The position numbers and the translations under genes were made by a program. Below, one piece after another: positions 41,330 to 63,610 of a stretch of DNA of 64,000 nucleotides (position 1 is its first letter; every line of letters starts with the position of its first letter). The notes beneath the pieces were generated by a model. That model was not told the DNA's origin. It saw only the letters and a list, made by a program, of their open reading frames with translations, and made no database searches. Source of the stretch: Dehalococcoidia bacterium. GTDB lineage: Bacteria; Chloroflexota; Dehalococcoidia; Plut-88900. Where the stretch lies: assembly GCA_965116945.1 (NCBI GenBank), contig OZ220734.1:65257-129256 (forward strand). Direction: 5' to 3'.

Positions 41330-42070
41330 TCATTCCGCCCCCGAGCCGGCTGCAAGTGCGCCCAATGCGTGAATCCATCCCACGAGGTAGAGTAGGGAGC
41401 TCTCCCTCTCTCGTAGGGGCATCCCTCATGGGCGCCCTCCCCGGTGCGGGGCCACTCATGCTGAGCCCCGTCGAAGTACGAGCGGAGAGGGGTGTCTTGT
41501 CCCCATCCCCCCAGTACTGAACTAGAGGCAGACGCATGTGCGTTGCACATGCGTCTGCCTCTGTTCTTATCTCCCCCTCTCCCTTCATGGCCCTAAGGGT
41601 CGAAGATGTCGCAGATGCGCCTTTGGCGTGCGCCGGGCTGAAAGTCCGCCTTTGGCGGAGCGTGAGAGGGGGACCAAGGGGGTGAGGGTTCCCCTGGGGG
41701 GTGGGGGTTATTCCCCCTCCCCCTTTGCCCCAGTACCAAACTAGAGGGGAGCACCTGCGCCAAGGCGCAGGTGCTCCCCTCTGTTTTTTCCTCCCCCTCT
41801 CCCTTGATGGCCCTAAGGGTCGAAGATGCGCCTATGGCGTGAGAGGGGGATAAAGGGGGTGAGGGTTCCCTGGGGGTGGTGGGGCCCACCCCCCAAAACT
41901 GTGCCATTTGCCCCTTGACTCTACCTGAACACGCGTGCTAACTTTCTCCCACGTTCGAACACCAACCCTACTCACTTAAGGAGGAACCAATAACCCAGGG
42001 AAGCCCCCGAGACCCACCGGGTCCCGTGTCCCTTCCCTACCCAGGCGATGGATAGACGCTCTGGTTCGCT
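41330..42070. repeat. Modular non-coding repeat element, left copy, with internal partial duplication and perfect palindromes. Inverted partner at ~63020..63610.
   Basis: Two tandem units sharing cccagtac(c/t)(a/g)aactagagg-[palindrome]-cctctgtt...ctccccctctccctt(c/g)atggccctaagggtcgaagatg...gagagggggaNcaagggggtgagggttccc. Perfect palindromes at 41524..41562 and 41743..41782. Sub-modules (cgagccggctgcaagtgcgcc; gctgaaagtccgcc..tggcggagc; ttaaggaggaaccaa..cccagggaagccc) recur in reverse complement near 63.0-63.6 kb. Confidence 0.6.
41743..41789 (+). terminator. Terminator-like hairpin inside the repeat: 19-bp perfect stem, aa loop, followed by gtttttt
   Basis: agaggggagcacctgcgcc-aa-ggcgcaggtgctcccctct-gtttttt read directly. 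There is no upstream + strand gene, so it is probably a structural part of the repeat element or its RNA. Confidence 0.35.
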
Positions 42071-42711
42071 TTAGTTCCATGTGAAGCTCCTAACGGAGAA
42101 GCCGCTCTTTGTAGCGGAAGCGCGGTCGGACAGACCCGGCGCCGAGGTCCTCTCGGCACCCCGGCCGCTCAATAAAGCCGGGTGCCGGTGGTCCCCCGCA
42201 CTTCCGGGTCGCACCGGCAAACTGGATACACTACTACGCCTGCAAGAGGCTCTGCATCGGACGCTGGAAGAGCCTCCTTACCGCCCTAGTGCGGTGCAGC
42301 CAACCCCAGGAAGTTGGGCACGGACCTGCTGGCCCTTAGGGTTCCTGCCCAAGTCCAGCGTATTTAGGGCCACAGGCCGCATAGCGGCATAAGCGGGCCG
42401 GCGCCCCTGCCCCGGGGCGTCGAATAACCCGAAGCACAGGAACGGGGCAGCGTCCCGGAAGCGTCTTCCATCGCCGACCCAAAACCCAAAAGAACAATCG
42501 AAACCCCACCCCCACAATCGAAGATGGAACATCCGCCTTGGGCGGGTCCGCCTCAGGAGGACCGAATAACCCGGCCCCCGGTCATTTGACATTCCCCAAG
42601 TGCACAGATAGACTCGCCCCCATCCGGATGCATGCCCTTTTGGATCCACCGCTTGTGACCCTGCACCTGACCTTGACTACTCTACGGTAACTGCCTTTCC
42701 CGGAGATATCA

Positions 42712-43911
42712 TTGGTCTACCTTTCCACCGAAACCCCTGTCCAGCGTTGCCTCGAAGACGCACTGGATGGTAGGCCCGTATCCAGGGGAGATGCTTACCG
42801 TCTGATCCGGGCCCAGGGCCCTGAAATTCCCGCTCTCCTTGCCGGTGCGGCCAGGCTGACTGAAATGGCCAAGGGGCGTAGGGTAGCCTACTCACGCAAG
42901 GTCTTTATCCCTCTAACCAACCTCTGCCGAGACCGCTGCGGTTACTGCACTTTCGTCAAAGGCCCTAAGCATCCGGACGCCAAGACCATGACTCCCGACG
43001 AAGTCCTTGCCGTCGCCAAGGCCGGTCGACGCGCGGGATGCAAGGAAGCCCTGTTTAGCCTTGGTGAGAAACCCGAAGATGTACACCGCGTGGCTCGTAC
43101 CCATCTTCAGGAGTTTGGCTATCCCTCCATGACCGACTACCTGGTAGACATGTGCAAACTTGTCTTCGAGGAGACCGGTCTATTCCCACACTCCAACTCC
43201 GGTGTCCTTGAACCCGAGGAAGTAGCCCGCCTCCGGGAAGTAACTGTCAGCATGGGCCTCATGCTGGAGAACGCCAGCCCCAGACTCCTTGAAAGAGGAC
43301 AGGCCCACTTTGGCAGTATTGGCAAAGACCCTCGCATCCGCCTGGAAACCATGCGCTATGCCGGAGAGTTGAGGGTCCCTTTCACCACCGGCATGCTCAT
43401 TGGAATCGGCGAAACCATCGACGAACGCGTTGATACCCTCTTCGCCATAAAGGACCTCCAGGATGAATACGGTCACATCCAGGAAGTCATTATCCAGAAC
43501 TTTCGCGCCAAGCCCGACACCCGCATGAGGGCCTACGGAGAACCTTCGGCTGTGGACATGGCCGTCACCATCGCCGTAGCCCGGCTGGTCCTGGGACCCG
43601 ACATGAACATCCAGGCTCCCCCCAACCTCACCGCCGACGCCTACCAGTTCTACCTGGCTTCCGGCATCAACGACTGGGGTGGAATCTCACCTGTCACCAA
43701 GGACTTCATAAACCCGGAAAAAGCCTGGCCTATGATCACGGAGTTGAAGGAGCGCACCGGAGCTCTCGGTTACGAACTACGAGAGAGACTCGCCATCTAC
43801 CCCGAATACATCATGGAAAAACACGGATACCTGAACCCCATCATGGAGGCCTCCGTACTCGGCCTCGTAGACGGGGACGGCTACGTTAAGAATGAGGAGA
43901 CCCGATGGTAA
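42712..43911 (+). CDS. cofG: 7,8-didemethyl-8-hydroxy-5-deazariboflavin (Fo) synthase subunit CofG (radical SAM), TTG start
   Basis: CRDRCGYCTF CxxxCxxC radical-SAM cluster motif plus CofG-like context. ggaga SD lies 6 nt upstream of the TTG. Confidence 0.85.
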   Translation: MVYLSTETPVQRCLEDALDGRPVSRGDAYRLIRAQGPEIPALLAGAARLTEMAKGRRVAYSRKVFIPLTNLCRDRCGYCTFVKGPKHPDAKTMTPDEVLAVAKAGRRAGCKEALFSLGEKPEDVHRVARTHLQEFGYPSMTDYLVDMCKLVFEETGLFPHSNSGVLEPEEVARLREVTVSMGLMLENASPRLLERGQAHFGSIGKDPRIRLETMRYAGELRVPFTTGMLIGIGETIDERVDTLFAIKDLQDEYGHIQEVIIQNFRAKPDTRMRAYGEPSAVDMAVTIAVARLVLGPDMNIQAPPNLTADAYQFYLASGINDWGGISPVTKDFINPEKAWPMITELKERTGALGYELRERLAIYPEYIMEKHGYLNPIMEASVLGLVDGDGYVKNEETRW

Positions 43912-45071
43912 TTGATGCCGCATTGCCCGGCGCCCTTGAGTCCGGTATCGACAGGCTTATGTCGGTGATCGAACCGGAGACCGCTCGAATTCTCGATAAG
44001 GCCCTGAATAGCTACGATATTGATGTGGATGAGGCCATTACCCTCTTTTCCGCCACCGACCTTGAACTTCACGCCCTCTGTGCCACCGCCAACGAACTCC
44101 GAAAGCGCACAGTCGGCGATATGGTCACCTTTGTGACCGTGCGCAACATCAACTTCACCAACGTTTGCTATACCGGCTGCAAGTTCTGTGCCTTCGCCAA
44201 GCACTTCGGCGACGAGGAAGCCGAGACCCTCACCATTGAGCAGGTCGCCGACCGTGCTGAGGAAGCCTGGGAGGCCGGTGCTACTGAGGTGTGTATGCAG
44301 GGTGGACTCCACCCCAAGATGACCGGCTTCGAATACCGCGACATGGTCATCGCCATCAAGGAGCGGGTGCCGAACATCCACATCCACGCCTTCTCTCCAT
44401 TCGAAGTCCAGTACGGCAGCAAGAAGACCGGCCTCAGCATCCGGGACTTCCTTCTTATGGTTAAAGAAGTCGGACTGGGCTCTATACCCGGCACTGCCGC
44501 CGAGATTTTGGATACCGATATACGCCAGCGCCTCACCAAGAACAAGCTCAGCGCCGAGAAATGGGCCGAGGTCATCAAGACCGCCCACGATGTCGGTCTG
44601 CCATCCACCTCAACCATCATGTATGGACACATAGATGCCCCTGTTCACTGGGCCAACCACATCGCACTTATCCGGGACATCCAGAAGGAGACCGGCGGCA
44701 TCACTGAGTTTGTACCCTTGGGCTTCGTCCACTGGGATTCACCACTGTATCAGCAGGGTGGCGTGAGGCCTGGTCCTACGGGAATGGAAGACCTCAGGAT
44801 GCACGCCATCTCCCGGATCATGCTTAACAACTGGATAAAGAACATCCAGGTCTCTTGGGTAAAACTTGGCCAGAAATTCGCCCAGGTTTGCCTAAACGCC
44901 GGCGCTAACGATTTCGGCGGCACCCTGATGAACGAAAAGATATCCCGGTCTGCTGGCGCTCCCTATGGTCAGTACATGTCTCCCGAGGAATTCACCCGAC
45001 TGATTAGAGACATTGGCCGGGTCCCGGCCCAACGCACCACGTCATACGACATCATCAGGGTGTTCGAATAG
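43905..45071 (+). CDS. cofH: Fo synthase subunit CofH (radical SAM)
   Basis: NINFTNVCYTGCKFCAF CxxxCxxC motif. Overlaps cofG by 7 nt. 388 aa. Confidence 0.85.
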   Translation: MVIDAALPGALESGIDRLMSVIEPETARILDKALNSYDIDVDEAITLFSATDLELHALCATANELRKRTVGDMVTFVTVRNINFTNVCYTGCKFCAFAKHFGDEEAETLTIEQVADRAEEAWEAGATEVCMQGGLHPKMTGFEYRDMVIAIKERVPNIHIHAFSPFEVQYGSKKTGLSIRDFLLMVKEVGLGSIPGTAAEILDTDIRQRLTKNKLSAEKWAEVIKTAHDVGLPSTSTIMYGHIDAPVHWANHIALIRDIQKETGGITEFVPLGFVHWDSPLYQQGGVRPGPTGMEDLRMHAISRIMLNNWIKNIQVSWVKLGQKFAQVCLNAGANDFGGTLMNEKISRSAGAPYGQYMSPEEFTRLIRDIGRVPAQRTTSYDIIRVFE

Positions 45072-45096
45072 CTTCCCCTACCCGGAGGTCTGAAAC

Positions 45097-45612
45097 ATGA
45101 GAGTCGAAGCTAAGCTCGCCGAGTTGGGAATAACCTTGCCGGACTACTCCAAAGAAGGCTATCCCGGCGCTACCTTCGGCACCATGAAGTCCCACCACCG
45201 GGTAGGCAACGTCCTCTATCTCAGCGGCCACCTTCCCTGGAAGGACGGCGGCCCGACCGCCATAGGCACCCTTGGTAAAGACGTGACCATTGAGGAAGGC
45301 TACGAAGCCGCCCGACTCACCGCCATACACTGCTTTGCGGGAATCAAATACGCTATCGGAGACCTCGATAAGATTGTCGCCATAGTCCGTTCACTTAACT
45401 TTGTAGTATGCACCCCGGAATTCACAGACGTAAATAAGGTTTCCAGCGGCGCTACGGACCTGTTCGTAGAAGTGCTGGGTGAAGAGAGGGGCCTTGGGGG
45501 TCGGGCAACCATCGGTGTAACCAGCCTCTCCAGTGGTGTCTGCTTCGAAAACTGGCTCACGGTAGAAGTTCAGGAAGAATACATCCCCGACGAACTCGGC
45601 CCCGACCAGTAG
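45097..45612 (+). CDS. RidA/YjgF-like family protein
   Basis: MRVEAKLAELGITLP N-terminus and ~170 aa length are typical of the RidA-family subgroup. Moderate confidence. Confidence 0.5.
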   Translation: MRVEAKLAELGITLPDYSKEGYPGATFGTMKSHHRVGNVLYLSGHLPWKDGGPTAIGTLGKDVTIEEGYEAARLTAIHCFAGIKYAIGDLDKIVAIVRSLNFVVCTPEFTDVNKVSSGATDLFVEVLGEERGLGGRATIGVTSLSSGVCFENWLTVEVQEEYIPDELGPDQ

Positions 45613-45790
45613 CTTTCATCTCAACAACCTGCCAGGAAAGGGTCGGGATGAGGGCTGGGTCCATGGTCTCTTGCGTCTGCATTGTCTGCAGGCCGAAGGG
45701 ATTTCAATGCATGCAGCCCCCATACGCTTGCCCTTTATGACAGTGATAGAATCATAGCCATCCTCCTCAGGTAAGGTCAGGACTACTGCA

Positions 45791-46996
45791 TTGCACGATC
45801 AGGCGCTAAGTGACCTGCGGGTTCTGGACTTCAGCCGGCGTATCCCTGGACACGTCTGTACAAAACTCCTGGCCGACTTTGGGGCTGACGTCATCCTTGT
45901 AGAACCCCCCGTCGGAGATCCGACCCGCTCCTCGAATCCCTTCATAGATGACCTGCCAGATCTCGAGAACAGTGGATACTTCCGCTACCTCAACAACAAC
46001 AAGCGCGGGATAACCCTGGATCCCGAGACAGACACCGGGGCAAGGCTCTTCTTGGAACTCGTAGAGTGGGCGGACCTCGTCGTAGAGACCTTCGCCCCTT
46101 CCACCCTCCCCTCCCTCGGCTTGGGATACGAAACAATGAAGGAGCGAAACCCTAAAATAGTACTCACCTCAGTAACAAACTTCGGGCAAAGCGGCCCCTA
46201 CAGCGAATACCTCGCCTCGGAGGCGATTTATTACGCCATGTCAGGTCTGATGTACGTCACGGGCCTCGACTCCCGGGAGCCTGTGAAACTGGGGGCGAAC
46301 GTTATCCAGTTCCACGCCGGCATAATGAGCGCCCTTCATTCTATGATCGCTCTACGGGGCACGGCATCAAGGGGTGTTGGAGAGCACGTCGACGAGTCTA
46401 TCCAGGAACTTCAAGCGGGCAGCATAGACCGAACCTCTGCAATGTTGCTGGCCTTTCAGTACACGGGATTCTTAACCCGGCGTGAGAACTTTGAAGGCGG
46501 AGGAGGGTCTGTCCACCAGTGTAAAGACGGCTACCTGAACATGTTCCCGGATGCCACCATGATCCCTAAAGGGTTGAACATGCTAGGAATGTCCGAGTTG
46601 ATGGAAGAGCCACTCTTCTCGACCATGGAAGCTCGATCCATGCCAGAAAGCCACGAGTATTTCGATGCCCTGCTTGATCCATGGCTTTTGGAGCGTCCTG
46701 TAACACAAGCCTTCGTCGCCGCCCAGGACGCACGCATTCTCTCAGGGCCGGTATACAACTCTGCCCTCCTCACCGCCGACCCCAACTTCAGCGCCCGGGC
46801 TTACTGGCCCACCGTTGAAAGATCACCCGGCGATATGGTGCGCATTCCGGGCAAGTCTTTCCAGATGTCCGGGGGCCCATGGACCATCTGCCGCCCCGCC
46901 CCCACCCTGGGCCAACATAACTCGGAAGTATACGGTGGCATCCTTGGCTTCTCTAGAGAAGAGCTTTCTATGTTGAAACAGGTTGGAGTCATCTAA
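45791..46996 (+). CDS. CoA-transferase family III (CaiB/BaiF-like), module gene A
   Basis: LSDLRVLDFSRRIPGHVCTKLLADFGADVILVEPPVGDPTR. The family-III N-terminal signature includes the catalytic Asp region. Confidence 0.85.
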   Translation: MHDQALSDLRVLDFSRRIPGHVCTKLLADFGADVILVEPPVGDPTRSSNPFIDDLPDLENSGYFRYLNNNKRGITLDPETDTGARLFLELVEWADLVVETFAPSTLPSLGLGYETMKERNPKIVLTSVTNFGQSGPYSEYLASEAIYYAMSGLMYVTGLDSREPVKLGANVIQFHAGIMSALHSMIALRGTASRGVGEHVDESIQELQAGSIDRTSAMLLAFQYTGFLTRRENFEGGGGSVHQCKDGYLNMFPDATMIPKGLNMLGMSELMEEPLFSTMEARSMPESHEYFDALLDPWLLERPVTQAFVAAQDARILSGPVYNSALLTADPNFSARAYWPTVERSPGDMVRIPGKSFQMSGGPWTICRPAPTLGQHNSEVYGGILGFSREELSMLKQVGVI

Positions 46997-48308
46997 CCCC
47001 GTGGGTAAGTCTAGTCTGCCCCTGGAAGGCATACGAGTCCTCGATATCACCCTGGTCTGGGCGGGTCCCTACGCGACTCAGATGCTCGCCGACTGGGGTG
47101 CCGAGGTAATCCGCCTGGAGCCCATCGACCACTTCCAGCCCCTGGCCCGAGGCCAACGTGCCCGGGTATCGAAAGCAGAAATTAACGCCGACGCCGATTG
47201 GCACAACGCCTACCCTAATTGGGACCCTACTGACATGCCCTGGAACAGGACCCCTTCCTTCAACGTCCATGCCCGCAACAAGAAGAGCATGACAGTTAAC
47301 CTGGGCGCACCGGGGGGGCAGGAGGTGTTCCGGAGGCTCCTCCATATCGCAGACGTGCTTATAGAGAATAACGTCCCCACTACAGCAGACAAGCTCGGAA
47401 TTTCCTATGATAGGGCCAGGGATATCAACCCGGGTTTCATCATGGTCCGAATGCCGGGCTTCGGCCTGCAGGGGCCCTACAGGACATACAGGACCCTTGG
47501 TAGCCACATTGATGGCGTTTCAGGGCACGCCAACCTGCGCGGCTATCCCGACCTTGGCCTGGAATTCCAGACCGACATCTTCTATAGCGATGCAGCGGGC
47601 GGCATAAACTGTGCCCTCGCTGTTTTGATGGCCCTGAGGCACCGACAGCGTACAGGCATGGGCCAGATGATAGAGCTCGCCCAGGTCGAAAACTTCACCT
47701 CTTATATAAGCGACGTGAACATGGACCGTTTGGTCAACGGTCGCATCCAACGCAGTGTCGGGAATCGACACCGCACAATGGTCCCCCATGGCTGTTACCC
47801 CTGTGCCGGAAAGGACGAATGGGTGGTCATCGCTGTCGAGAAAGAAGAGCAATGGGACGCCCTGTGTCGGGTGATGGGCAACCCTGGCTGGACCACCGAC
47901 AGAAAGTTCGCCAGCTACCTCAGCCGCTACGAGCACCAGGATGAGCTTGACCCCCTGATGTCTGACTGGACCCGCTCCCTTAACAAGGCTGATCTGATGT
48001 GCATCCTGCAGGAAGCCGGAGTGCCCTCGGGCCAAGTCTCCAATCACGCTGAGGTTACCGGTGACCGGCAACTGCGGGGCCGCAACTTCTTCCAGTGGGT
48101 GGACATGCCCGGCACAGGCATACACGAATATCCATCCATCATCGGACGCCTCTCCGAGACCCCTAACGCCATCCGCACACCCCCGCCCCGACTTGGCGAG
48201 CACAACGAATACGTCTACAAGCAACTCCTTGGCTATACTGACTCCGAGTACAGACAGTTAGAGGAAATGGGTCAGATAGGCAACGCATACCATGACCACG
48301 TGGGATGA
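46983..48308 (+). CDS. CoA-transferase family III (CaiB/BaiF-like), module gene B (overlaps gene A by 14 nt)
   Basis: LEGIRVLDITLVWAGPYATQMLADWGAEVIRLEP. 441 aa. Confidence 0.85.
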   Translation: MESSNPVGKSSLPLEGIRVLDITLVWAGPYATQMLADWGAEVIRLEPIDHFQPLARGQRARVSKAEINADADWHNAYPNWDPTDMPWNRTPSFNVHARNKKSMTVNLGAPGGQEVFRRLLHIADVLIENNVPTTADKLGISYDRARDINPGFIMVRMPGFGLQGPYRTYRTLGSHIDGVSGHANLRGYPDLGLEFQTDIFYSDAAGGINCALAVLMALRHRQRTGMGQMIELAQVENFTSYISDVNMDRLVNGRIQRSVGNRHRTMVPHGCYPCAGKDEWVVIAVEKEEQWDALCRVMGNPGWTTDRKFASYLSRYEHQDELDPLMSDWTRSLNKADLMCILQEAGVPSGQVSNHAEVTGDRQLRGRNFFQWVDMPGTGIHEYPSIIGRLSETPNAIRTPPPRLGEHNEYVYKQLLGYTDSEYRQLEEMGQIGNAYHDHVG

Positions 48309-48433
48309 CGCTCCGAGTGAGCATGTTCTCCAAGTCAATACCTTGTTCTTTACACGCACCCCCCGGAACGTATACTATCGTCGCCGAAATTGCGTAGGCA
48401 TTCCGGGCACGAACGCCAGCTGGAGGTGCAATA

Positions 48434-48676
48434 GTGGCCGACATCGATGAAATCGCCCCGACAGATTATCTGACCGAGGAACAGATCAAGAAAGGCTATT
48501 GGGTCCAGGAGACCTTTGGAAACCTGCAAGTCTGGCACCGCAAGAACCAGATAGCGCTTCTTATCATTACCCCCGACATCGAAGCCAAGGTACAGGACAT
48601 AGTTCTGGGCCGCATCCGTGAACTGCAGGAAGTCTTCGAAAAAACGGGTTGGAGACCCGAGGAAGACGAGGAATAA
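48434..48676 (+). CDS. Hypothetical small acidic protein
   Basis: 80-aa ORF with coding-like composition. No motif recognised. Confidence 0.3.
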   Translation: MADIDEIAPTDYLTEEQIKKGYWVQETFGNLQVWHRKNQIALLIITPDIEAKVQDIVLGRIRELQEVFEKTGWRPEEDEE

Positions 48677-48709
48677 CCCCCCCTGACCCTCTTTTCCAGG
48701 AGACCAATT

Positions 48710-48916
48710 ATGGCCATTTACGAATACTACTGCTCTGATTGCGGCAATGAATTCGAGCTAATGAGACCCATCAGCAAAGCCAGTGATCCTGCCCCCTGTC
48801 CCGCCTGTAATGCCAATGGCCAAAAGCTCATGTCCGCCGCCGCTTCCAAGGTGGACTACTACATTAGGACGCCCGCGAAGCCCGCTTTCCGGCAGCACCC
48901 TCCCGCAAAGAAATAG
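48710..48916 (+). CDS. FmdB-family zinc-ribbon protein
   Basis: MAIYEYYCSDCGNEFE...CPACN. Characteristic FmdB N-terminus and CxxC...CPxC. Confidence 0.6.
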   Translation: MAIYEYYCSDCGNEFELMRPISKASDPAPCPACNANGQKLMSAAASKVDYYIRTPAKPAFRQHPPAKK

Positions 48917-48995
48917 CCCGAACCAGTCGTATTTCCAAATACCTCGCATTTGTTGAATTTCAGCTACGGTTCTCTTAACAGATAAGGCGCATTAT

Positions 48996-49154
48996 ATGAA
49001 TCTTACCGCAAAGAAAGTCTATTGCAGGACATGTAAGAAGTTGGTCAGTGTTCGCCGCGATGTTGACGGAGAGAACACAACCGTCGTTTGCAACGGCTGC
49101 AACAAAACGTCCTATTCGTGGGATCAGGTAAGCTGGAAATACGTCGGAGGCTGA
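48996..49154 (+). CDS. Unlisted 52-aa zinc-ribbon sORF (CRTC...CNGC) ending 3 nt before the dnaJ GTG start
   Basis: MNLTAKKVYCRTCKKLVSVRRDVDGENTTVVCNGCNKTSYSWDQVSWKYVGG*. Two CxxC pairs. Not in the ORF track because it is under 60 aa. Confidence 0.4.
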   Translation: MNLTAKKVYCRTCKKLVSVRRDVDGENTTVVCNGCNKTSYSWDQVSWKYVGG

Positions 49155-49157
49155 TCC

Positions 49158-50267: not shown

Positions 50268-50526
50268 AGTGGAAGAAGTCGAGCCTTACGCAGCCAATGT
50301 GACGAAGGCCATCATCAAGAAATGGAACGGCGTAGTACGAGTCTGGAGCGAACCGATGAGCGCAGTGGAAGGCTCTCAGGTATTGGACGAGATCACCGTC
50401 CCTACCCAGGTGACAGTCTTCGAAGAGCAGAAGGACATTTACGGCTCCCTGTCCCAACGTGCTCACATTCGCTACGACAACACTAAAGAGGGCTGGGTAC
50501 TCTGGGATGCCATCACTACCGAGTAG
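50254..50526 (+). CDS. Hypothetical small protein
   Basis: ORF MSMNKVEEVEPYAANVTKAIIKKWNGVVRV... overlapping the dnaJ stop. No motif. Confidence 0.3.
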   Translation: MSMNKVEEVEPYAANVTKAIIKKWNGVVRVWSEPMSAVEGSQVLDEITVPTQVTVFEEQKDIYGSLSQRAHIRYDNTKEGWVLWDAITTE

Positions 50527-50533
50527 TGTGTGC

Positions 50534-55661: not shown

Positions 55662-55689
55662 GCTTTTGGGGCGTCGCCTTAGTCCGCCC

Positions 55690-56892
55690 CTATCCCACCG
55701 CCCCCGACGCCCTGAGCGAGTCGATCTGCTCGGCAGAATATCCGGCCGACTCCAGGACATCCTTCGTATGCTCACCGATGCTTGGGCCAAATCCCCGGGG
55801 CCTCATTGTCTCCCCCGCAAACTTGAATGGGATGCCCACCTGCTTCACCATCCCCAGCGACGAGTGCTCCATCTCCACCACCATATCCCGTTCCTGGACT
55901 TGAGGATCACCTGCAACCTCGTCAATGGCGTAAACCCTGCCCACACACGTGTCAACCTCGCTCAACACATCGAACCATTCGTCTCGGGTGCGCGTAAGGA
56001 AGGCATTGGCTAGCTGGGCATTTACACGCTCGTCTTCCATCCCGTATTCGTAATGGTCGGCAATTTCCTCCAGCCCCATGGCCTGGCAAAGCGTAACGTA
56101 GAACCACGGCTCCAGGCTGGCTATGGATATGAATTTGTCGTCTTTGGTGCGGTAAATGAAGTAACGCGGATCTCCTCCTGCCAGCCTTGACCGCCCGAGC
56201 GTTGGCACATTGCCCGTCTTAAAATAGTCCTCGAACATGGTAGCCATCAGGTACATGACGCCATCGGTCATAGCCACGTCCACGTATCTCCCCCGCCCCG
56301 TCGTCCGATGTTCTACCAGAGCGGCAAGTACGGCTATTGCAGCAGTTAGCCCGCCACCTGCGAAGTCACCTAGTAAGTTCCATGGGATTGCATGCTGACC
56401 AGGGCCGCTTCCAATTGCCCCCTGGGCCCCTGCCGTAGACGTGTAGTTGATGTCATGTCCCACCATGCTCCTGTAGGGTCCCGTCTGACCGTAGCCCGTG
56501 ACTGACAGGTAGACTATGCCCGGGTTGATTCTGCTGATGGTCTCGTAATCGACCCCCAACCGCTTAACCACACCTGGCCTGAATTCTTCTACGAAGACGT
56601 CAGCATCCTCGACCAGCTTGTATAAGACCTTGCGCGCATCTTCGCTTTTCAGGTTCAGGCCAATGCTACGCTTGCCTCGTGCCATGGGATCATAGGCGTT
56701 CTCCTCCTCGGAGCGGTTCAGCCACCCTGCTCCGGCCATTGCGCCCTTCACCGCCGCCCGCCTCCCGCTAAGTGCGAATTCCTCGACCTTTAACACGTCA
56801 GCACCCAAGTCTGACAAGACCATAGTGCAGAAGGGCCCGGGGGCCATGCGCGACAGGTCGATTACTTTGATTCCCTCTAACGGTAGAGCCAT
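55690..56892 (-). CDS. CoA-transferase family III (CaiB/BaiF-like)
   Basis: MALPLEGIKVIDLSRMAPGPFCTMVLSDLGADVLKVEE. Confidence 0.85.
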   Translation of the reverse strand: MALPLEGIKVIDLSRMAPGPFCTMVLSDLGADVLKVEEFALSGRRAAVKGAMAGAGWLNRSEEENAYDPMARGKRSIGLNLKSEDARKVLYKLVEDADVFVEEFRPGVVKRLGVDYETISRINPGIVYLSVTGYGQTGPYRSMVGHDINYTSTAGAQGAIGSGPGQHAIPWNLLGDFAGGGLTAAIAVLAALVEHRTTGRGRYVDVAMTDGVMYLMATMFEDYFKTGNVPTLGRSRLAGGDPRYFIYRTKDDKFISIASLEPWFYVTLCQAMGLEEIADHYEYGMEDERVNAQLANAFLTRTRDEWFDVLSEVDTCVGRVYAIDEVAGDPQVQERDMVVEMEHSSLGMVKQVGIPFKFAGETMRPRGFGPSIGEHTKDVLESAGYSAEQIDSLRASGAVG

Positions 56893-56922
56893 TAATAGTG
56901 TCCTCCCGGATTGGTGGTGAGC

Positions 56923-58143
56923 TCAGGACTCCACGGTGATCACGCCTTCGGCAATAAGGTCGCCAATCTCCTCGTCGGTCATGCCGAGGATCTCCTTGTA
57001 GACGTATTCGTTGTGCTGACCGAGTGTCGGGGCCGCCGTAAGACTGCCCGGTGTACGGGACAACTCGAAGGAGAACCCGTCATATGCGTGCCGCCCTATA
57101 ACTTCGTGGTTCAGGTTCCTGAAGAAGTTCCGGTACTTGACCTGGGCATCTGCAAACTGCCCCTCCGCACTTAACACCACACCGGCCGGCACGCCCGCGG
57201 ACTGCAGCGTCTCCATGACTTCTTGAGCATCCCGCCCTCGCGTCCACTCACCGATAAGCTTATCTAGTGCTTCCTCGTTTGCTTTTCTCGCCTCCAGGTT
57301 CTCGAAGCGCGGATCTTTGGTCCATGCGGGCTTGTTCATAACCCAGCACAGACTGTTCCATTCATCCTCGGTGAATACAGCAATGGCGCACCAGGAGTCC
57401 TCACCCCGACATGGATAGGCGTTGTGCGGTGCGGCCCTCGGGTCCCGGTTTCCGTCCCGGGTCATCTCTTGACCGTTCAGAGCGTAATTCATCTGCACCG
57501 GTGCGATCATTTGCAGACCACTCTCGAGCTGGGATAGGTCAAGATGCTGCCCGATCCCCGTCTTCCTTTTGTGGTCCAGCGCAGCAACGAGGGCCGCAGC
57601 ACCAAAGAACGGCGAAATAAAGTCCGTGTAAGCGCCGTACGGTGGAGCCGGCTCCCTGTCCGGCCATCCGGTCAGATGAGCGTACCCCGACAGGCTGGCC
57701 ATCATCATTCCGAACCCGATGAAGCCGCTATGCGGACCACCTTTGCCCTGTTGGCTGGCACTGTAATAAATGATGTCGGGCTTGATCTTGCGAATGCTTT
57801 CGTAGTCCAGTCCCCACTTTGCCATCGCCCGGGGGCTGAAGGATTCAGCTACTACATCGGCCCACAATATCAGCTGACGCGCAATCTCCACTCCCCTTGG
57901 AGTGTTAATGTCCAGGCTGATGCCGTACTTGCTTGTGTTGTAGTCCGTCATGAAGGCGCTTCGGTCTACGCCCGCGATGCCATCCTTGAATGGCGGTGTC
58001 ATTCGTAGCGTGTCCAGGTGGGTGTGCGATTCTATGTGGACAACCGTGGCGCCGTGATCGGCCAGGTTCTTGATAGTGATCGGCCCGACTCCCACCCAAG
58101 TGAAGTCCGCCACTTTGATGCCTTGAAATATCTGCTCAGGCAC
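56923..58143 (-). CDS. CoA-transferase family III (CaiB/BaiF-like)
   Basis: FQGIKVADFTWVGVGPITIKNLADHGATVVHIES. Confidence 0.85.
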   Translation of the reverse strand: MPEQIFQGIKVADFTWVGVGPITIKNLADHGATVVHIESHTHLDTLRMTPPFKDGIAGVDRSAFMTDYNTSKYGISLDINTPRGVEIARQLILWADVVAESFSPRAMAKWGLDYESIRKIKPDIIYYSASQQGKGGPHSGFIGFGMMMASLSGYAHLTGWPDREPAPPYGAYTDFISPFFGAAALVAALDHKRKTGIGQHLDLSQLESGLQMIAPVQMNYALNGQEMTRDGNRDPRAAPHNAYPCRGEDSWCAIAVFTEDEWNSLCWVMNKPAWTKDPRFENLEARKANEEALDKLIGEWTRGRDAQEVMETLQSAGVPAGVVLSAEGQFADAQVKYRNFFRNLNHEVIGRHAYDGFSFELSRTPGSLTAAPTLGQHNEYVYKEILGMTDEEIGDLIAEGVITVES

Positions 58144-58155
58144 TGACCACTCTCC

Positions 58156-59418
58156 TTAAATTACGCCCGACTGTTGCAGTAGTTCCAGGTGTTCAGCTTC
58201 CAGCCCCAGTTCCTCAGAGTATATTTCCTTGTTGTGTTCTCCGATGTGGGGGGCTCTGCGCGGTGTCCCCACAGGGCTCTCTGATTGGCTGACAGGCCAT
58301 CCAGGGTAGATCACAGTTTCGCCAATCTCAGGGTCAAAGACCTCCTGCCAAAAGCTCCTTGCCGCGAGCTGTGGGTTGATCATCTGGTATGCGGGAGTCC
58401 CGATTGGGGCTATCCAGATGCGTTTTGCTACTGCCCCTTCATAGAGCTCCTCCACGGTGTGGGCCTCGAAGAATTCACTGATGTTGCGTTCCAGCATATC
58501 TCGGGTCTCGGGGTCTGTGGGCACAAACCCGAATCCCGCCCAATCGAACCCTTTGAGCTCTAGCCCTATTCCCTCACTGTTCATCCAGTCCACCAGGGCC
58601 TGGTTTACCCTGACACCTGGACCAGAGCCGACGATGACGAAATTCACATAGCCGTCCTTGCATTTCCATGTGTAGCGGATGGGCACGTCCATGGCCTTTC
58701 CATCCCTAACCATTGAGAAGGTCTTCACAGCCCCGCCCCGCAGGGTGTTCATGCGTGACAGGTCCCAGGTGATGGTAACGTTCATCTGAGTCCACATAAT
58801 TGCCAACTGCATAGAGGCATCCACGTGTTGACCCTTTCCGCTGCTATCCCGGTAGTAGTAGGCGTTCATTGTACCCACGGCAGCTTGCAGGGCAGCATGG
58901 CTCCATGCCTGGGGATAGCTGATTCTAACTGGGGGTCTGTCCGCGTCTCCGCTGACGTACATGATGCCACCCATTGCCATCCCTATGAGATCTGTGACTT
59001 TGTATCGAGCGTAGGGCCCAGACTGCCCGAATGGCGTAATGGAGGTCATGACAATACCCGGGTTGAGTTTGCTCAGGGCTCGATATCCGAGTCCGAGGTC
59101 ATCCAGGTAACCCGGCGTAAAGGACTCAATGACAAAGTCTGCGTTTATGGCAAGACGCAGGAACATCTCTTTGCCTTCGGCGTTTTCAATGTCGAGGGTG
59201 ATACCTCGCTTGTTCGCGTTGAATGCCCACCAGTACAGGCTCTTATCGGGATCGGGCGTATTCTGGTAGAAGGGCCCCTGGAGTCGGCCTGGATCCCCGC
59301 CCGGTTCCTCTATCTTGAGCACGTCGCAGCCCAGGTCAGCGAGGATCTTACCGCAAAGGAAGCCATTCTCACGCGTCATGTCCAGGACTCTGAGAGGTGG
59401 GAGCAGATTCATGGGCAA
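58156..59418 (-). CDS. CoA-transferase family III (CaiB/BaiF-like)
   Basis: LPPLRVLDMTRENGFLCGKILADLGCDVLKIEEPGGDP. Confidence 0.85.
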   Translation of the reverse strand: MPMNLLPPLRVLDMTRENGFLCGKILADLGCDVLKIEEPGGDPGRLQGPFYQNTPDPDKSLYWWAFNANKRGITLDIENAEGKEMFLRLAINADFVIESFTPGYLDDLGLGYRALSKLNPGIVMTSITPFGQSGPYARYKVTDLIGMAMGGIMYVSGDADRPPVRISYPQAWSHAALQAAVGTMNAYYYRDSSGKGQHVDASMQLAIMWTQMNVTITWDLSRMNTLRGGAVKTFSMVRDGKAMDVPIRYTWKCKDGYVNFVIVGSGPGVRVNQALVDWMNSEGIGLELKGFDWAGFGFVPTDPETRDMLERNISEFFEAHTVEELYEGAVAKRIWIAPIGTPAYQMINPQLAARSFWQEVFDPEIGETVIYPGWPVSQSESPVGTPRRAPHIGEHNKEIYSEELGLEAEHLELLQQSGVI

Positions 59419-59544
59419 ACCCTAATCGCGGCCTCTGAGCTTGTCAACGCATTGGGGGGGCGCTGATATTGAAGGCAAACCAAATCTGTCAGTGCTACCA
59501 TGAACCGCATCTTGGCTGCTCGCCTTTGAGCGAATGGAGATTCA

Positions 59545-60360
59545 TTGCTCTACGTGGTCGCAACCCCTATAGGCAACATGGAGGACATCACACTTCGAGC
59601 CCTCCGGATTCTGCGGGAAGTCTCACTCATAGCTTCGGAAGACACCCGAACGACGAGGCGCATCCTCCGACGCTACGACATCAAGACGCGTCTCATCAGC
59701 TTCCACGATCACAGCGGCAAGGTGAAGCTACAGCAGCTAGTAGAGCATATGAAAACCGAGGATCTAGCATTGGTCTCGGAAGCGGGTACGCCCAATATCA
59801 GCGACCCGGGCCACGACCTTATTGCTGCGGCAATCGAGAAATCGATACCGGTAGTCTCTATACCCGGCCCGACGGCCGCCGTCTCCGCCCTATCGACTTC
59901 GGGGCTCCCGACGTCCCAGTTCTCATTTGTCGGATTCCTGCCCAGAAAGGCATCGGAGCGGAGGAGATTGCTGAGGTCGGTTCTAGCGGAGGGACGCACT
60001 GTTGTGGCATATGAGGCCCCACATCGCCTCATCGCCGCCCTTGTTGACATTGAAGCCGTCGAGTCGGAGGTTCAGGTGGCCGTTTGCAGGGAACTGACCA
60101 AGCTCCACGAAGAGGTATTCCGTGGGACAGCACTTGAAGCCCGCAATCATTTCGCTGCACCCCGAGGTGAGTTTACATTAGTGATTGGCCCTTCCACGTC
60201 CAAGGATGACGCTATCACTGATGAACAGATTGCATCGGAGCTCACGAAGTTGGAATCTGATGGGCTATCGGGCAAGGAGGCAGTAAACAGGGTAGCAAGG
60301 GAGCATGGAGTGGGTAGGAACAAGGTGTACCGGGTTTGGGTGGAGGGGAGGAGAAGCTAG
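59545..60360 (+). CDS. rsmI: 16S rRNA (cytidine1402-2'-O)-methyltransferase RsmI, TTG start
   Basis: (M)LYVVATPIGNMEDITLRALRIL...IASEDTR...ALVSEAGTPNISDPG. Tetrapyrrole-methylase fold signature of RsmI. Confidence 0.85.
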   Translation: MLYVVATPIGNMEDITLRALRILREVSLIASEDTRTTRRILRRYDIKTRLISFHDHSGKVKLQQLVEHMKTEDLALVSEAGTPNISDPGHDLIAAAIEKSIPVVSIPGPTAAVSALSTSGLPTSQFSFVGFLPRKASERRRLLRSVLAEGRTVVAYEAPHRLIAALVDIEAVESEVQVAVCRELTKLHEEVFRGTALEARNHFAAPRGEFTLVIGPSTSKDDAITDEQIASELTKLESDGLSGKEAVNRVAREHGVGRNKVYRVWVEGRRS

Positions 60361-60947
60361 GAGTCTTCTGCATCCCGGGACAGCTTCGCTCCTTCAATCC
60401 TGGCCCTGAGTTCACCTTCGTCGACGCCCAGCTCAATGGCTTTCAGGACATCGGCTTCTGCTTGGTCATCCTGCCCTAGCAGGAGGTAGGCAAAGGCCCG
60501 TTGCACATAAGCGCCCTGATGTGTCGGGGCGATGTCTATCGTGGTAGTGAAGTCCTGTATGCCTTCGTCGTATCGTTCAAGTTTGATGTAGGTAAGGCCC
60601 CGGTTATAGAAGGCGGCATCATAGCCTGGGCGGAGCCTTATCGCTTCGGTGAAGTCCCGGATTGCCAGGTCGAACTGGCCCTCCTGGGCAAACGTGGTAC
60701 CGCGGATTATAAATTCCTCCGGGATGATAGCTCTAGCCGTGGGTACAGGCTCATCTCCGAGCTCCGGGCCCACCATGAAGAAAACCACGCTCCCGCAAGA
60801 AAACACGAATATGAAGGCTATGGTCATTAGCCCGATCACGTGCAGAGGGATCCACGGTACAGGCCGGGTCTTGCCTTCCTGAGTCTCCCTCTCCTCAATC
60901 AGGACAGGAAGAGGCTTGGGCTGTTTTTTGCGGAAAAATCGCATCAC
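60357..60947 (-). CDS. TPR-repeat protein with N-terminal transmembrane anchor
   Basis: TM helix IGLMTIAFIFVFSCGSVVFFMV followed by 3 TPR-like units (AIRDFTEAIRLRPGYDAAFYNRGLTY...). Convergent 4-nt overlap with rsmI. Confidence 0.7.
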   Translation of the reverse strand: MMRFFRKKQPKPLPVLIEERETQEGKTRPVPWIPLHVIGLMTIAFIFVFSCGSVVFFMVGPELGDEPVPTARAIIPEEFIIRGTTFAQEGQFDLAIRDFTEAIRLRPGYDAAFYNRGLTYIKLERYDEGIQDFTTTIDIAPTHQGAYVQRAFAYLLLGQDDQAEADVLKAIELGVDEGELRARIEGAKLSRDAEDS

Positions 60948-61070
60948 ATTTGGGCCTCACACCCATCTTGCAGGGTTCCGGGTGTGTCGTACTTATTGTA
61001 CAACCCAACCCAAACATCCCCTTGACAAGGTTGCCCTATCGGCCTACGTGATGCACGAAGGACTGGCCGG

Positions 61071-62279
61071 TTATACGACGCCTGTCTCCTTGAGCCGGCC
61101 AATGCGCTCGCCGTCATAACCCAGCACCTCGGATAGGACCTGTTCAGTGTGCTGGCCCAAAAGGGGAGACGGCTCTACGCGTGTTGGAGAGTCAGAGAGT
61201 TTGATGGGGTTGCCTGGAAAGGTGAACTCGCCGCGTTGAGGATGATCTATTGTCACGATCATCTCTCTTTCCATCAGGTGAGGATCGGAGTGGATGTCCT
61301 CCGCATTGAGCAGAGCGCCGGCAGTGACCCCGATCTCTCCCATGAGCTTCATGACCTCGTGTTTGTCGTGTTTGGCCGACCATTCTTCGATGACATGGGT
61401 AAGTTCATCGTTGTTGGCTACGCGTGCGTCATTGGTCGCGAAGCGGGGGTCTCCTATAAGGTCTTGCCTCTCTATGAGGCGGAGGAAGCCGTCCCACAGC
61501 CTTTGACCGATGATTCCGTTGATGTAAAGGTACACATAGTCGTCCTTGCCACCTGGCTTGCACCTGAAGAGGTCGCAGGGTGAGGACCCGGGGGAGGACC
61601 GGCCCCGGCGGTCGGGGACCTCTTTGTCGTAGTAGTAGCCATGCATCGTGACCCGGGTGAAGTTCACCACGGCGTCCTGCATCGAGACTTCCACCTCTTG
61701 TCCTTTACCCGTCTTCTCGCGCTGCCACAGAGCGGCCATAATGCCCAGAGCGGTATGGTATCCCGTACCGATGTCCCCGGCAGTAACTCCGGGCAACAGG
61801 GGAGGCCCACCCGGCTCCCCAGTCATAGCGACGGCACCTCCGGTGGTGAGGGCTATCATGTCGAAGCTCTTGTAGTCGCTGTAGGGGCCGTAGGTGCCGA
61901 ATCCCTTTACGCGGGCCAAGATGATTTTAGGGTTTATCTGCGAAAGGACGTCGTAGCCGAATCCCAGGCGCTCCATCGTACCGGGGCCCATGTTCTCGGC
62001 TACTACGTCACTCTTCCTTATCAATTCGATAAAGACGAGCTTGCCCTCTTCGGTCTTCAGATCCAGGGTGATGCTCTTCTTGTTGGCGTTGAGGGTCATG
62101 AAGTAATAGCTATCGAAGCCCTTACCGTCATCGCGCACCTTCCGACCGGGGTCGCCGCGTCCGGGGGCCTCTACCTTGATGACGTCGGCACCCAGCCAGG
62201 CGAGAGCCTGGGTGCATGAAGTGCCAGCCTCGAACTGCGTGAGGTCAATTACCCTGATCCCGTCCAGTGCAGTTCCCAT
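61071..62279 (-). CDS. CoA-transferase family III (CaiB/BaiF-like; formyl-CoA-transferase-like)
   Basis: LDGIRVIDLTQFEAGTSCTQALAWLGADVIKVEAPGRGDP. Confidence 0.85.
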   Translation of the reverse strand: MGTALDGIRVIDLTQFEAGTSCTQALAWLGADVIKVEAPGRGDPGRKVRDDGKGFDSYYFMTLNANKKSITLDLKTEEGKLVFIELIRKSDVVAENMGPGTMERLGFGYDVLSQINPKIILARVKGFGTYGPYSDYKSFDMIALTTGGAVAMTGEPGGPPLLPGVTAGDIGTGYHTALGIMAALWQREKTGKGQEVEVSMQDAVVNFTRVTMHGYYYDKEVPDRRGRSSPGSSPCDLFRCKPGGKDDYVYLYINGIIGQRLWDGFLRLIERQDLIGDPRFATNDARVANNDELTHVIEEWSAKHDKHEVMKLMGEIGVTAGALLNAEDIHSDPHLMEREMIVTIDHPQRGEFTFPGNPIKLSDSPTRVEPSPLLGQHTEQVLSEVLGYDGERIGRLKETGVV

Positions 62280-62417
62280 ATTCAGCCTCCCGCCAAGTGT
62301 AGATTGAGGCCGATTATAGCAGACCGGTTGCTGTTAGCCCTCAAAGCACCTCTCGGGTGAGGATGCTGGAGCGCGCAGGGCATAAGGGAAGTCGATGGAT
62401 GGTATGGAGGGAGTGAA

Positions 62418-62494
<77 letters not shown>

Positions 62495-62865
62495 ACGGGT
62501 CGGTAGCTTAGCACGATGGATGTGGGCATTCAAGGCGGTGTACTCGTACGGTGGACTAGTGACGCACTGGAGTTTTGTTCAGTTGTGAGGTTTTGGGTTG
62601 GCGATGGAAGACGCCTGGAGAGCCGGTCGGCCTCTACTCTCATGCGGTGTTCCGGCTGTCGGGGGCCTTGGAGGTCCGCCGAGGGCGGATTGCAGCCGGC
62701 CGCGCCCTAGCGCTCGATGTGTGCTCCAGCTGTCCGGGCAGACAACCGGGCCTTGACCCCACTTCTGAATGCCCGCAGGCATGGTGGGGGCCAGTGATCG
62801 GGCTGTGGCCCCCTCAGACATCATGTGTTACGTGGGCCCCCCGAGGGTCAAGGCGGCCCAGCGAC

Positions 62866-63030
62866 CCCTTGCTTGATATATGGCGCAAGCTCGCCGGCGG
62901 GCCGACCTCCGGGATCCAGTCCCGGTCGGGGATAGCCGGTCCGCCACCCCTGCTTGATATAGCGTAAGCTCGCTGCTAACCGGCCTCCGAGACTACCGTC
63001 TCGGCGGGGAATGGCCGGTTCGCTGTGGCT
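62866..63030. repeat. Two tandem ~82-bp repeat units (cc(c/t)tgcttgatata(t)...) each containing a different perfect hairpin at the same relative position
   Basis: Unit A hairpin is ccggga-tccag-tcccgg. Unit B hairpin is ccgagac-tacc-gtctcgg. Both are followed by ggggaWWgccggtYcgc. This is compensatory covariation between units. Confidence 0.5.
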
Positions 63031-63610
63031 CTATCCAGGGCGTCTTTCCATCGCCTGACTACCAGGGAAGGGGGCACACGGGACCCGGTGGGATGAGGAG
63101 ATGGCGACGTTCGCTTGTGCCGCAGGCCTGCGCGAGGGCCGTTAGGATGGGCTAGGGCGTTGAGTCCTCTCGTTGGGTCTCGGGTGGGCTTCCCTGGGTT
63201 TTTGGTTCCTCCTTAAGGTTGGTGTCGGGTCTAGACTTGGGAGGAAGATAGCACATATGTTTGGGTGCGTCAAGGGTGTGGGTTGCACAGTTTCGGGGAG
63301 GAGAACCCCCCAACCCCCCAGGGAACCCTCACCCCCTTGATCCCCCTCTCACGCCATAGGCGCATCTTCGGCCCTTAGGGCCATTAAGGAAGAGGGAGAG
63401 AAAAGAATAGGGGCATGCGCATGTGCTGAAGCACATGCGCATGCCCCTAATTCAGTACTGGGGGGAGGGGGAGGAAAGAACAGAGGGATGGACCTGCGCC
63501 AACGTCTGCCTCTAGTTTGGTACTGGGGGAAGGGGATGGATTCCGGCTCCGCCACGGGCGGACTTTCAGCACGGCGCACTTGCAACCGGCTCGGCGGCCG
63601 GATTGACCGG
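63020..63610. repeat. Modular non-coding repeat element, right copy, in inverted orientation relative to 41330..42070
   Basis: The reverse complement contains cccagtaccaaactagagg, atggccctaagggccgaagatgcgcctatggcgtgagaggggga..gggggtgagggttccctgggg, cgagccggttgcaagtgcgcc, gctgaaagtccgcccgtggcggagc and gggcttccctgggttTttggttcctccttaa, all matching modules of the left copy. Also carries the perfect 38-bp palindrome ggggcatgcgcatgtgc-tgaa-gcacatgcgcatgcccc (63411..63448). Confidence 0.6.

Follow-up and report, generated by a model that had tools for sequence, protein, structure and literature searches.

Two inverted members of a dispersed, repeat-embedded family of candidate structured RNA genes in a soil Dehalococcoidia chromosome

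Two inverted regions and their common layout

The stretch of DNA analysed here, hereafter the window, comprises 64,000 nucleotides of contig OZ220734.1 (assembly GCA_965116945.1) of a Dehalococcoidia bacterium, and contains two non-coding regions that match each other in inverted orientation across a block of 21 kb. Region A (41271-42711, 1.44 kb) is the spacer between a cupin gene (40911-41270, minus strand) and the divergent cofG (42712-43911, plus strand). Region B (62280-63641, 1.36 kb) separates the stop codon of thrS (63642, minus strand) from a family-III CoA-transferase gene (61071-62279, minus strand) and contains a tRNA-Pro(GGG) gene. We propose, with confidence that is evenly balanced, that both regions carry members of a multi-copy, lineage-specific family of large structured non-coding RNA (ncRNA) genes with fast turnover, embedded in mosaics that resemble repetitive extragenic palindromes (REP).

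A repeat search of the window returned 12 inverted pairs that link 41.33-42.01 kb with 63.19-63.60 kb. Up to 157 nt are matched by a single pair (80% identity, 41720-41876 / 63315-63471), and a pair of 32 nt reaches 97% (41975-42006 / 63186-63217). When region A was compared by blastn with the reverse complement of region B, 41716-42019 was colinear with 63474-63171 (76.7% over 309 columns, E = 4e-60), and the alignment resumed as 42013-42064 with 63092-63035 (82.8%, E = 8e-10) past a segment of about 80 nt present only in B (63093-63170). In total, the colinear match amounts to about 350 bp at 77-83% identity, accompanied by shuffled shorter modules (41.33-42.07 kb, plus, against 63.60-63.03 kb, minus). 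The shuffling affects the outer modules (for instance, 41628-41661 = 63579-63546 and 41332-41362 = 63603-63573), and 41500-41717 is a second match to a unit of B already aligned. Three occurrences of the 22-mer ATGGCCCTAAGGGYCGAAGATG were counted in the window, where 0.00 are expected. The longest exact identity between the two inverted arms is 31 nt, followed by 24 and 20 nt. A previous sequence-only reading of this DNA had described inverted, modular and palindrome-rich sub-modules here, and this description was accurate, all four strings that it gave as examples being found where it had placed them and in inverted orientation. The limits that it had drawn, at 42.07 and 63.02 kb, have to be moved, as homology runs about 450 bp further into the block, to 42475 and 62600. 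This deeper conserved piece, about 420 nt further in on both sides (42461-42497 / 62614-62575, 87.5%), repeats the end of the colinear match in reverse-complemented form (42043-42060 / 63056-63040); therefore, each copy holds a segment of its own (433 nt in A, 457 nt in B) within an inverted repeat of 15-24 bp.

The order of parts is identical in A (plus strand) and B (minus strand): palindromic modules, one or two of what we call M-units, a promoter-like site, a leader, domain I, domain II and a tail. An M-unit consists of CAGTACYRAACTAGAGG, a perfect 19-bp hairpin, a T-rich run, CCCTCTCCCTT...GAGAGGGGGA and then GGGTGAGGGTTCCC. The promoter-like site common to both copies reads TTGACK, 17-18 nt, TG-c-TAWCTT, and it is followed by a C/A-rich leader with a perfect Shine-Dalgarno-like AAGGAGGAACCAA that has no start codon behind it. 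The small domain I is closed by AGGGAAG/CTTCCCT, and a long-range helix of 15-24 bp (AGGCGATGGA.../...TCCATCGCC) encloses domain II, which measures 330-470 nt across the family. The tail is C-rich, G-poor and devoid of a hairpin terminator, and the promoters of cofG and tRNA-Pro are separate from the unit and lie past it. The non-coding segment of a full unit spans 550-700 nt.

M-unit hairpins were found 25 times in 314 kb of sampled loci (designated by L numbers), always in intergenic positions and often in tandem. They show at least 12 different stem sequences and nearly all of them are perfectly paired at a constant 19 bp despite the change in sequence, as in the compensatory series CAGACG...CGTCTG in the window, CGGACG...CGTCCG in L015 and TATACG...CGTATA in L013. 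All copies have the hairpin foot A-CTAG-AGG ... CCTCTG. GC-rich stem-loops followed by a T-run, as in predicted intrinsic terminators, are present at 41523-41563 and 41742-41783 (plus) and at 63449-63408 (minus); the M-unit hairpin with its T-rich run may thus read as a terminator that would insulate the unit from upstream transcription. Two other small palindromic modules were observed. One is a mini-hairpin of about 22 nt (GGAACRYCCGCCTWTGGMGGAG) whose site of insertion varies (window 41609-41660 and 42530-42560; L007:517-545; L008:1460-1490): it interrupts an M-unit, domain I and, in L007, the AAGGAGG motif midway, where the flanking bases seem duplicated. Judged from these positions, it appears to behave like a very small mobile insertion. 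The palindrome module CCCTCTCCC...GGGAGAGGG + GGGTGAGGGT has two more copies in the window, at 22064-22107 and 34953-34996, away from A and B.

Copy A (plus strand) begins with an outer REP-like mosaic (41326-41499; CCGTCATTCC, with CGAGCCGGCTGCAAGTGCGCC at 41342-41362 and GAATCCATCCC at 41371-41381), which has inverted matches to B and whose short modules were found again in L009, L013, L015 and L019-L022. Two tandem M-units follow. The first, A1 (41500-41717), comprises CAGTACTGAACTAGAGG, the perfect 19-bp hairpin at 41523-41563, called terminator-like by the scanner, and the remaining elements of an M-unit, with a mini-hairpin insertion of about 52 nt at 41609-41660; it is a direct repeat of A2 (41718-41900, hairpin at 41742-41783) and also matches B at 63472-63297. 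The promoter-like site (41915-41944; TTGACT, 18 nt, TG-c-TAACTT) has a degenerate -10 and aligns with the CCCTTGAC...TGCTAWWMT conserved in all other copies. The candidate RNA-A, with predicted ends at 41951 and 42560, would include the C/A-rich leader with the motif TAAGGAGGAACCAA at 41977-41990, a truncated domain I of 42 nt (41997-42038, AGGGAAG...CTTCCCT), the 433-nt domain II (folding z = -4.9) between closing arms at 42043-42070 and 42448-42475 (arm duplex -41.1 kcal/mol), and a C/A-rich tail that reaches up to the cofG promoter. A search by nhmmer with the profile of the 5' domain matches RNA-A. The promoter of cofG (42586-42614; TTGACA, 17 nt, TAGACT) lies outside the repeat and is kept in L014 and L016, relatives without the RNA.

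In copy B, where all features are on the minus strand, the outer REP-like mosaic (63536-63603) stands directly past the thrS stop codon and has inverted matches to A. It is followed by a partial M-unit (63473-63535; CAGTACCAAACTAGAGG) with a decayed hairpin of only -11.8 kcal/mol, by M-unit B1 (63297-63472), with inverted matches to A and a terminator-like hairpin at 63408-63449, and by the predicted promoter (63245-63273; TTGACG, 17 nt, TG-c-TATCTT). The candidate RNA-B (62545-63238, both ends predicted) would consist of a leader with TAAGGAGGAACCAA at 63215-63202, a full domain I of 133 nt (63195-63063), the 457-nt domain II (folding z = -5.5) between arms at 63056-63029 and 62627-62600 (duplex -37.0 kcal/mol), and a C/A-rich tail. 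It is 82% identical over 552 nt to L004, a locus of another genome with which neighbouring genes are not shared, and the substitutions between the two spare predicted pairs (P = 0.04 and 0.008). The tRNA-Pro (GGG) gene (62418-62494) is indeed present near the right boundary, as had been pointed out before, but it is a mere neighbour and no part of the repeat, having its own promoter (62505-62533; TTGAAT, 17 nt, TG-c-TAAGCT), which is conserved in L019-L022. Directly 3' of tRNA-Pro, L020 carries a low-GC insert of about 2.2 kb (L020:7741-9861) with a 583-aa open reading frame (ORF) without Pfam match; this insert is absent from the window, L019 and L022, and makes tRNA-Pro a suspected hot spot of integration in the lineage.

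Dispersal of the family and the block between the two copies

The 22-mer was used to scan one genome per species, and it revealed seven loci in two complete chromosomes of Dehalococcoidia metagenome-assembled genomes (MAGs), OY760104.1 and OZ244800.1. Six of these have promoter, leader and domain I, to which the arm-bounded large domain is added in those not cut by the end of the locus. A scan of metagenomes with the leader pattern gave three true copies and one spurious purine-rich match (L011); the metagenome copy L010 has no upstream M-unit, which indicates that the M-unit and the promoter plus RNA part are separable. More copies were found at orthologous sites in relatives. The exact look-up of window proteins had retrieved only the same strain (L001 and L002, 99.8-100% identical), unusable for comparison. 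In total, the family was observed at 14 loci beyond A and B, in at least six Dehalococcoidia genomes or metagenomes (two MAG chromosomes, one whole-genome shotgun metagenome and several ENA assemblies). The search of viral contigs, phage records and plasmid records gave no match, and hence no sign of a phage or plasmid origin. As far as sequence comparison can tell, A and B are paralogues from one multi-copy, lineage-specific family of soil Dehalococcoidia, and their inverted pairing is incidental, the two members simply lying 21 kb apart.

To compare the surroundings of both copies, orthologous junctions were taken from relatives via their CofG and CoA-transferase homologues. The right junction was sampled in four assemblies whose CoA-transferase falls into the same 90%-identity cluster as the best match (cluster representative 92% identical to the window protein). 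All four (L019-L022) present thrS, the repeats with the RNA, tRNA-Pro, the CoA-transferase, a tetratricopeptide-repeat (TPR) gene and rsmI onward, oriented as in the window. On the left, L015 (CofG 89% identical) has the cupin gene, the repeats with the RNA and cofG, the same as in the window. The left neighbours differ in L014 (CofG 93%; insertion sequence and thiamine pyrophosphate enzyme), L016 (86%; trmE) and L017 (70%; solute-binding protein), and none of these three has a family member upstream of cofG. They keep cofG-cofH, two CoA-transferases and dnaJ in order, and the YjgF-like gene is also found in L014 and L016. Neither cofG beside thrS nor the cupin gene beside tRNA-Pro, the products of an inversion between A and B, was seen in any of the relatives examined, and the block ends carry no transposase, integrase or recombinase.

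The sequence-only reading had presented the repeats as bounding the 21-kb block, either as an inversion substrate or as the termini of a composite element. Such a role would suit two copies that are inverted and have some 350 colinear bp in common, and a left junction that is a synteny breakpoint among relatives; nevertheless, both junctions are arranged as in the window wherever a relative has retained the neighbouring gene, the identity of 77-83% is interrupted by indels, and many other copies of the family exist, so the pair is not special. Given that the junctions are collinear, that the interior is syntenic without copy A and that exact identity is short, the block is no repeat-delimited unit and shows no sign of flipping. 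We therefore regard inversion substrate and composite element as very improbable. The left junction is rearrangement-prone by comparison of these loci, but none of the rearrangements seen at it is an inversion between A and B. The 21-kb block is a normal piece of the chromosome, flanked by chance by two inverted copies of a dispersed repeat. Of the earlier claims, the lack of a visible transposase or integrase holds at the block ends, the search for copies elsewhere does find the modules at many loci but with no pairing relationship between A and B, and the evidence agrees with the fallback idea, in which an ncRNA family takes the place of an active island. Two observations concern repeated genes in the window: at least seven family-III CoA-transferase paralogues lie in 45-62 kb, and long direct repeats at 9941-24191 (71-82% identity, spacings of 707, 1050 and 1611 nt; D1-D5) look like tandem paralogous genes.

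Promoter, fold and turnover of the candidate RNA

Copies were distinguished by their 5' domain (alpha or beta) and by the type of their large domain. Across alpha copies, the -35 CCCTTGAC and the TGCTA of the extended -10 are invariant and the spacer varies. Under a strict consensus rule, a forward promoter, always TG-extended, stands at a fixed distance (159-208 nt) ahead of the 5' closing arm in 8 of the 11 copies, and a reverse-strand promoter within about 900 nt was found in none of the 11. By consensus match and conservation pattern, the site resembles a sigma-70 promoter with extended -10; the -10 of copy A (TAACTT) fails the strict rule. The same TGCTAnnnT style is seen at the lineage's own tRNA-Pro and protein genes. 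The orientation assigned to the element relies on this promoter and on a slightly better result of the forward strand in the substitution test described below; the element is thus presumably transcribed from the predicted strand. A strand call on thermodynamic grounds was discarded, as neither minimum free energy (MFE) nor alifold energies favour the promoter strand. The sigma-70 promoter with its TG-extended -10 would drive a non-coding transcript of 550-700 nt, and the tail without hairpin terminator suggests Rho-dependent termination or read-through into the next, always co-oriented gene.

At all seven independent loci, the downstream gene is co-oriented with the element, which fits a transcript without a strong terminator. 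This co-orientation would also be expected if the element were a portable cis-acting cassette, in which terminator, promoter and long structured leader tune the gene downstream (cofGH in A; tRNA-Pro and CoA-transferase in B), and the missing 3' hairpin terminator and the M-unit terminators, which point the same way as the promoter, agree with such an arrangement. We consider it improbable, because the downstream functions are unrelated (cofG, tRNA-Pro, amidohydrolase-like, GNAT, peptidase S58, CoA-transferase and deformylase-like), promoters of their own stand between the RNA and the gene at least for cofG, tRNA-Pro and the genes of L004 and L012, and the cofG promoter and its context are kept in relatives without the element. 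It should be mentioned that arrays of the motifs TTCAATCAA / AACAATCAA (ACAATCGAA in the window, 42495-42530) precede the tRNA-Pro and cofG promoters by 40-120 nt (L019:9640-9700; L022:6385-6440; L020:7505-7560; L014:5698-5745; L015:9815-9865; L016:9745-9790), also in relatives that have no RNA element, and may be a regulator-binding or UP-like element. Furthermore, L008:1960-2215 shows a promoter-like site (TTGAAC, 17 nt, TACAAT), about 200 nt and then a strong terminator (AACCCTCGCGGTCGGGTTGCGAGGGTTTTTGTTG), with no ORF and no Rfam match; this may be a separate small RNA gene.

The segment behind the promoter is non-coding. The ORFs that overlap the element gave no Pfam match, and those called on it in relatives (L015 and L019-L021, 80-345 aa) are inconsistent: the lengths called are 207, 345 or 232 aa, or no ORF at all, 1-nt indels shift the frames between L019 and L022, and the frames disagree among L019, L020 and L022. 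A protein-coding reading was rejected on the lack of Pfam matches and on these frames. That the regions encode small proteins (42081-42392, plus; 42278-42649, minus; 62575-62967, plus; the 207-aa ORF of L019) is hardly credible to us. A beta-type 5' domain does present AAGGAG, 6 nt and then ATG, but in alpha-type copies no start codon follows the Shine-Dalgarno-like motif, and the translations are rich in Arg, Pro, Ser and Gly, as expected of GC-rich non-coding DNA. As to known RNAs, the window and five related loci were searched against Rfam 15 at gathering thresholds and at E <= 1, and only tRNAs reached threshold; the matches below E = 1 were short hairpins to microRNA or small RNA models, which scored 17-30 bits (gathering scores 46-200). 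No covariance match to GOLLD, ROOL, OLE, HEARO, raiA, RNase P, tmRNA, 6S or T-box was obtained. A T-box or leader of thrS was ruled out, since the element is downstream of thrS. Nothing resembling the element was found in the literature on Dehalococcoidia ncRNA or on units of promoter plus RNA.

All seven full copies share one two-domain MFE fold in which the long-range helix is formed. The energies of domain II are 3 to 10 standard deviations below those of dinucleotide shuffles (z = -3.0 to -9.9). Two classes of co-varying closing arms were distinguished, GGAAGACGC/GCGTCTTCC and GGAAGGTCC/GGACCTTCC: duplexes of arms from the same class reach -28 to -41 kcal/mol, against -15 to -26 kcal/mol for cross-class duplexes (type-2 5' arm with type-1 3' arm). 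In an alignment of nine sequences with type-2 large domains, the consensus has 53 pairs, 92.6% of the cells are paired and 12 of the 53 pairs changed on both sides; none of 500 shuffles reached any of five measures, and slid partners were paired in 34-47%. On the forward strand, substitutions that separate related copies break fewer predicted MFE pairs than random placement in all nine comparisons (P < 0.05 in eight of them); in the same test, the reverse strand gave P < 0.05 in five of nine. Domain I is highly conserved in sequence, save one hairpin with a variable stem, of which at least four versions were found (GGCC/GGCC, GGCCC/GGGCC, GGGCGGC/GCCGCCC and GGTCGC/GCGACC). The long closing helix could be a processing site of RNase III type, and the RNA might act in trans, plausibly as a scaffold or sponge through its exposed purine-rich and C/A-rich single strands.

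The composition of the element differs among close relatives. At the cupin-cofG site, domain I of the L015 copy is complete, and the large domain belongs to the L012 subtype and is unalignable with the interior of copy A. At the thrS-tRNA-Pro site, copy B of the window combines an alpha 5' domain with a type-1 large domain, L019, L020 and L022 have a beta 5' domain (AGGAAAGGA...TCCTTTCCT) with a type-2 large domain, and L021 has a decayed copy without 3' arm. Two loci of OY760104.1, L005 and L009, have large domains that are identical over the visible 258 nt and a domain I that differs, variable hairpin included. Some large domains show an internal tandem duplication. In three strains with an identical CoA-transferase protein, the RNA diverges by 5-8%, compared with 0.2-2.4% in the flanking protein genes. 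The family would evolve by module exchange, gene conversion, gain, loss and decay, which would explain the different subtypes at orthologous sites of close relatives. The short-read contigs L018, L023 and L024 end within region B, 150-620 nt upstream of the CoA-transferase gene, from which it follows that the repeats break short-read assemblies. Insertion sequences were also observed. One of the DDE_Tnp_1 family with 29-bp terminal repeats is found in place of region A in L014 (L014:4290-5515), and upstream of it there is, by eye only, an apparent small toxin-antitoxin pair; another, of the rve family, stands between the M-unit and the RNA promoter in L004 (L004:5314-6627). Parentage from these insertion sequences was discarded: the 29-bp ends of the L014 element are unrelated to the closing arms, and the L004 element merely intervenes.

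Another explanation is that domain II is a non-autonomous transposon resembling a miniature inverted-repeat transposable element (MITE), in which the closing helix represents terminal inverted repeats used by a transposase in trans, the M-units are REP/REPIN-like and any RNA is incidental. The arms AGGCGATGGAAGG... / ...CCTTCCATCGCC do bound 330-467 nt without coding signal in 11 copies, and terminal arms of 15-24 bp that are conserved around interiors of unrelated types are what MITE families show. Presence, absence and decay that vary among close relatives, a near-neutral rate of divergence, folding and covariation signals on both strands, short-read contigs that break within region B and the frequency of insertion sequences in these regions agree with a transposon as well. 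On the other hand, every arm-bounded segment is preceded by the conserved promoter and 5' domain and followed by a similar tail, with no solo copies in the 314 kb, a small and biased sample. Read from the sequences, the arms have no target-site duplication and their flanks differ (for example, CCCTACCC|...|GACCC and GGTAGTC|...|AACCC), and the two nearby insertion sequences have unrelated ends. Moreover, it is the interior stems, and not the termini alone, that keep their pairing through substitutions, and the conserved promoter reads into the element in most copies under the strict rule. We consider the MITE-like transposon a serious alternative, though a rather unlikely one.

Several points weigh against the proposal of a structured ncRNA gene family. 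The strand of the candidate RNA comes from the promoter, and the reverse complement folds domain II as well and domain I better (-44 vs -28 kcal/mol), largely via G-U pairs. Many MFE pairs are still broken by substitutions, the covariation is based on 9-11 related sequences, and palindromes at the DNA level would yield part of the folding and pairing signal. The divergence of the RNA is about the synonymous rate of the flanking genes. The element is absent from the orthologous sites in L014, L016 and L017 and decayed in L021, so that any single copy is dispensable, as expected for selfish DNA. In addition, the sample of loci is biased by the way it was seeded, and copy A, with its degenerate -10 and truncated domain I, may be decaying.

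Significance and comparison with known elements

Bacteria rarely have large structured ncRNAs, and the discovery of each new class has opened up new biology. The candidate has a conserved promoter of its own and folds into two domains with a long-range helix that co-varies; Rfam 15 contains no match to it, and its host lineage, soil Dehalococcoidia, is known from metagenomes only. Its modular turnover is unusual for a bacterial ncRNA: orthologous sites carry differing subtypes, and one and the same large domain is joined to different 5' domains in a single chromosome. This turnover might shed light on the spread of such RNAs, or of selfish elements that resemble them. A bolder proposal, which we put forward tentatively, is that this is an undescribed class of large, ornate, promoter-driven ncRNA of uncultured soil Dehalococcoidia, with several paralogues per genome whose 5' domain and large domain are swapped like cassettes. 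If true, this would point to a functional RNA or ribonucleoprotein scaffold with a swappable specificity domain, or to a new RNA-centred mobile element. As a practical effect, besides breaking short-read assemblies, the repeats cause spurious ORF calls of up to 345 aa.

The outer mosaics and M-units invite comparison with REP, bacterial interspersed mosaic elements (BIME) and REPIN (PMC3733652, PMC3116915, PMC2817692), which are likewise short, GC-rich intergenic palindromes, dispersed and clustered in variable mosaics; REP families have been described in Chloroflexi (PMC3733652). Both often stand at gene ends and show terminator-like behaviour, and the M-unit hairpins conform to the description of short (20-40 nt), imperfect, dispersed and clustered intergenic palindromes. 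The hairpin foot, CTAGAGG, differs in that it has no GTAG or CGTC tag of REP (PMC3733652). Furthermore, M-unit stems are 19 bp with a freely varying interior sequence, and the modules are joined to a promoter and a structured segment of 0.6 kb, which REP clusters do not have.

Regarding the arm-bounded part, the Correia elements of Neisseria are non-coding, inverted-repeat-bounded elements of about 100-150 bp with a TA target duplication, multi-copy and variable among strains, that can carry promoters and form RNA hairpins cut by RNase III. The element of Dehalococcoidia is similar to these and to MITEs in being non-coding, bounded by inverted repeats, multi-copy and variably present. It differs in the size of the arm-bounded part (330-470 bp), in having no target duplication and in standing always behind the same promoter and 5' domain. 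The closing helix, in turn, recalls ribosomal RNA operons, in which RNase III excises 16S and 23S rRNA at stems formed by distant sequences: here too, a helix of 15-24 bp made from sequences several hundred nucleotides apart brackets a structured RNA, although the element is no rRNA and cleavage at the helix would be purely by analogy.

Finally, if the family is one of structured RNA genes, its closest counterparts would be OLE, GOLLD, ROOL, HEARO and raiA, large bacterial ncRNAs whose function is either unknown or only lately discovered. It belongs to the same size class (0.5-0.7 kb), with an ornate multi-hairpin fold and long-range closing helices, and like them it is lineage-restricted, sometimes multi-copy and occasionally near tRNA genes. 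The family described here is set apart by a much lower sequence conservation, a much higher turnover among strains and a modular, exchangeable interior.

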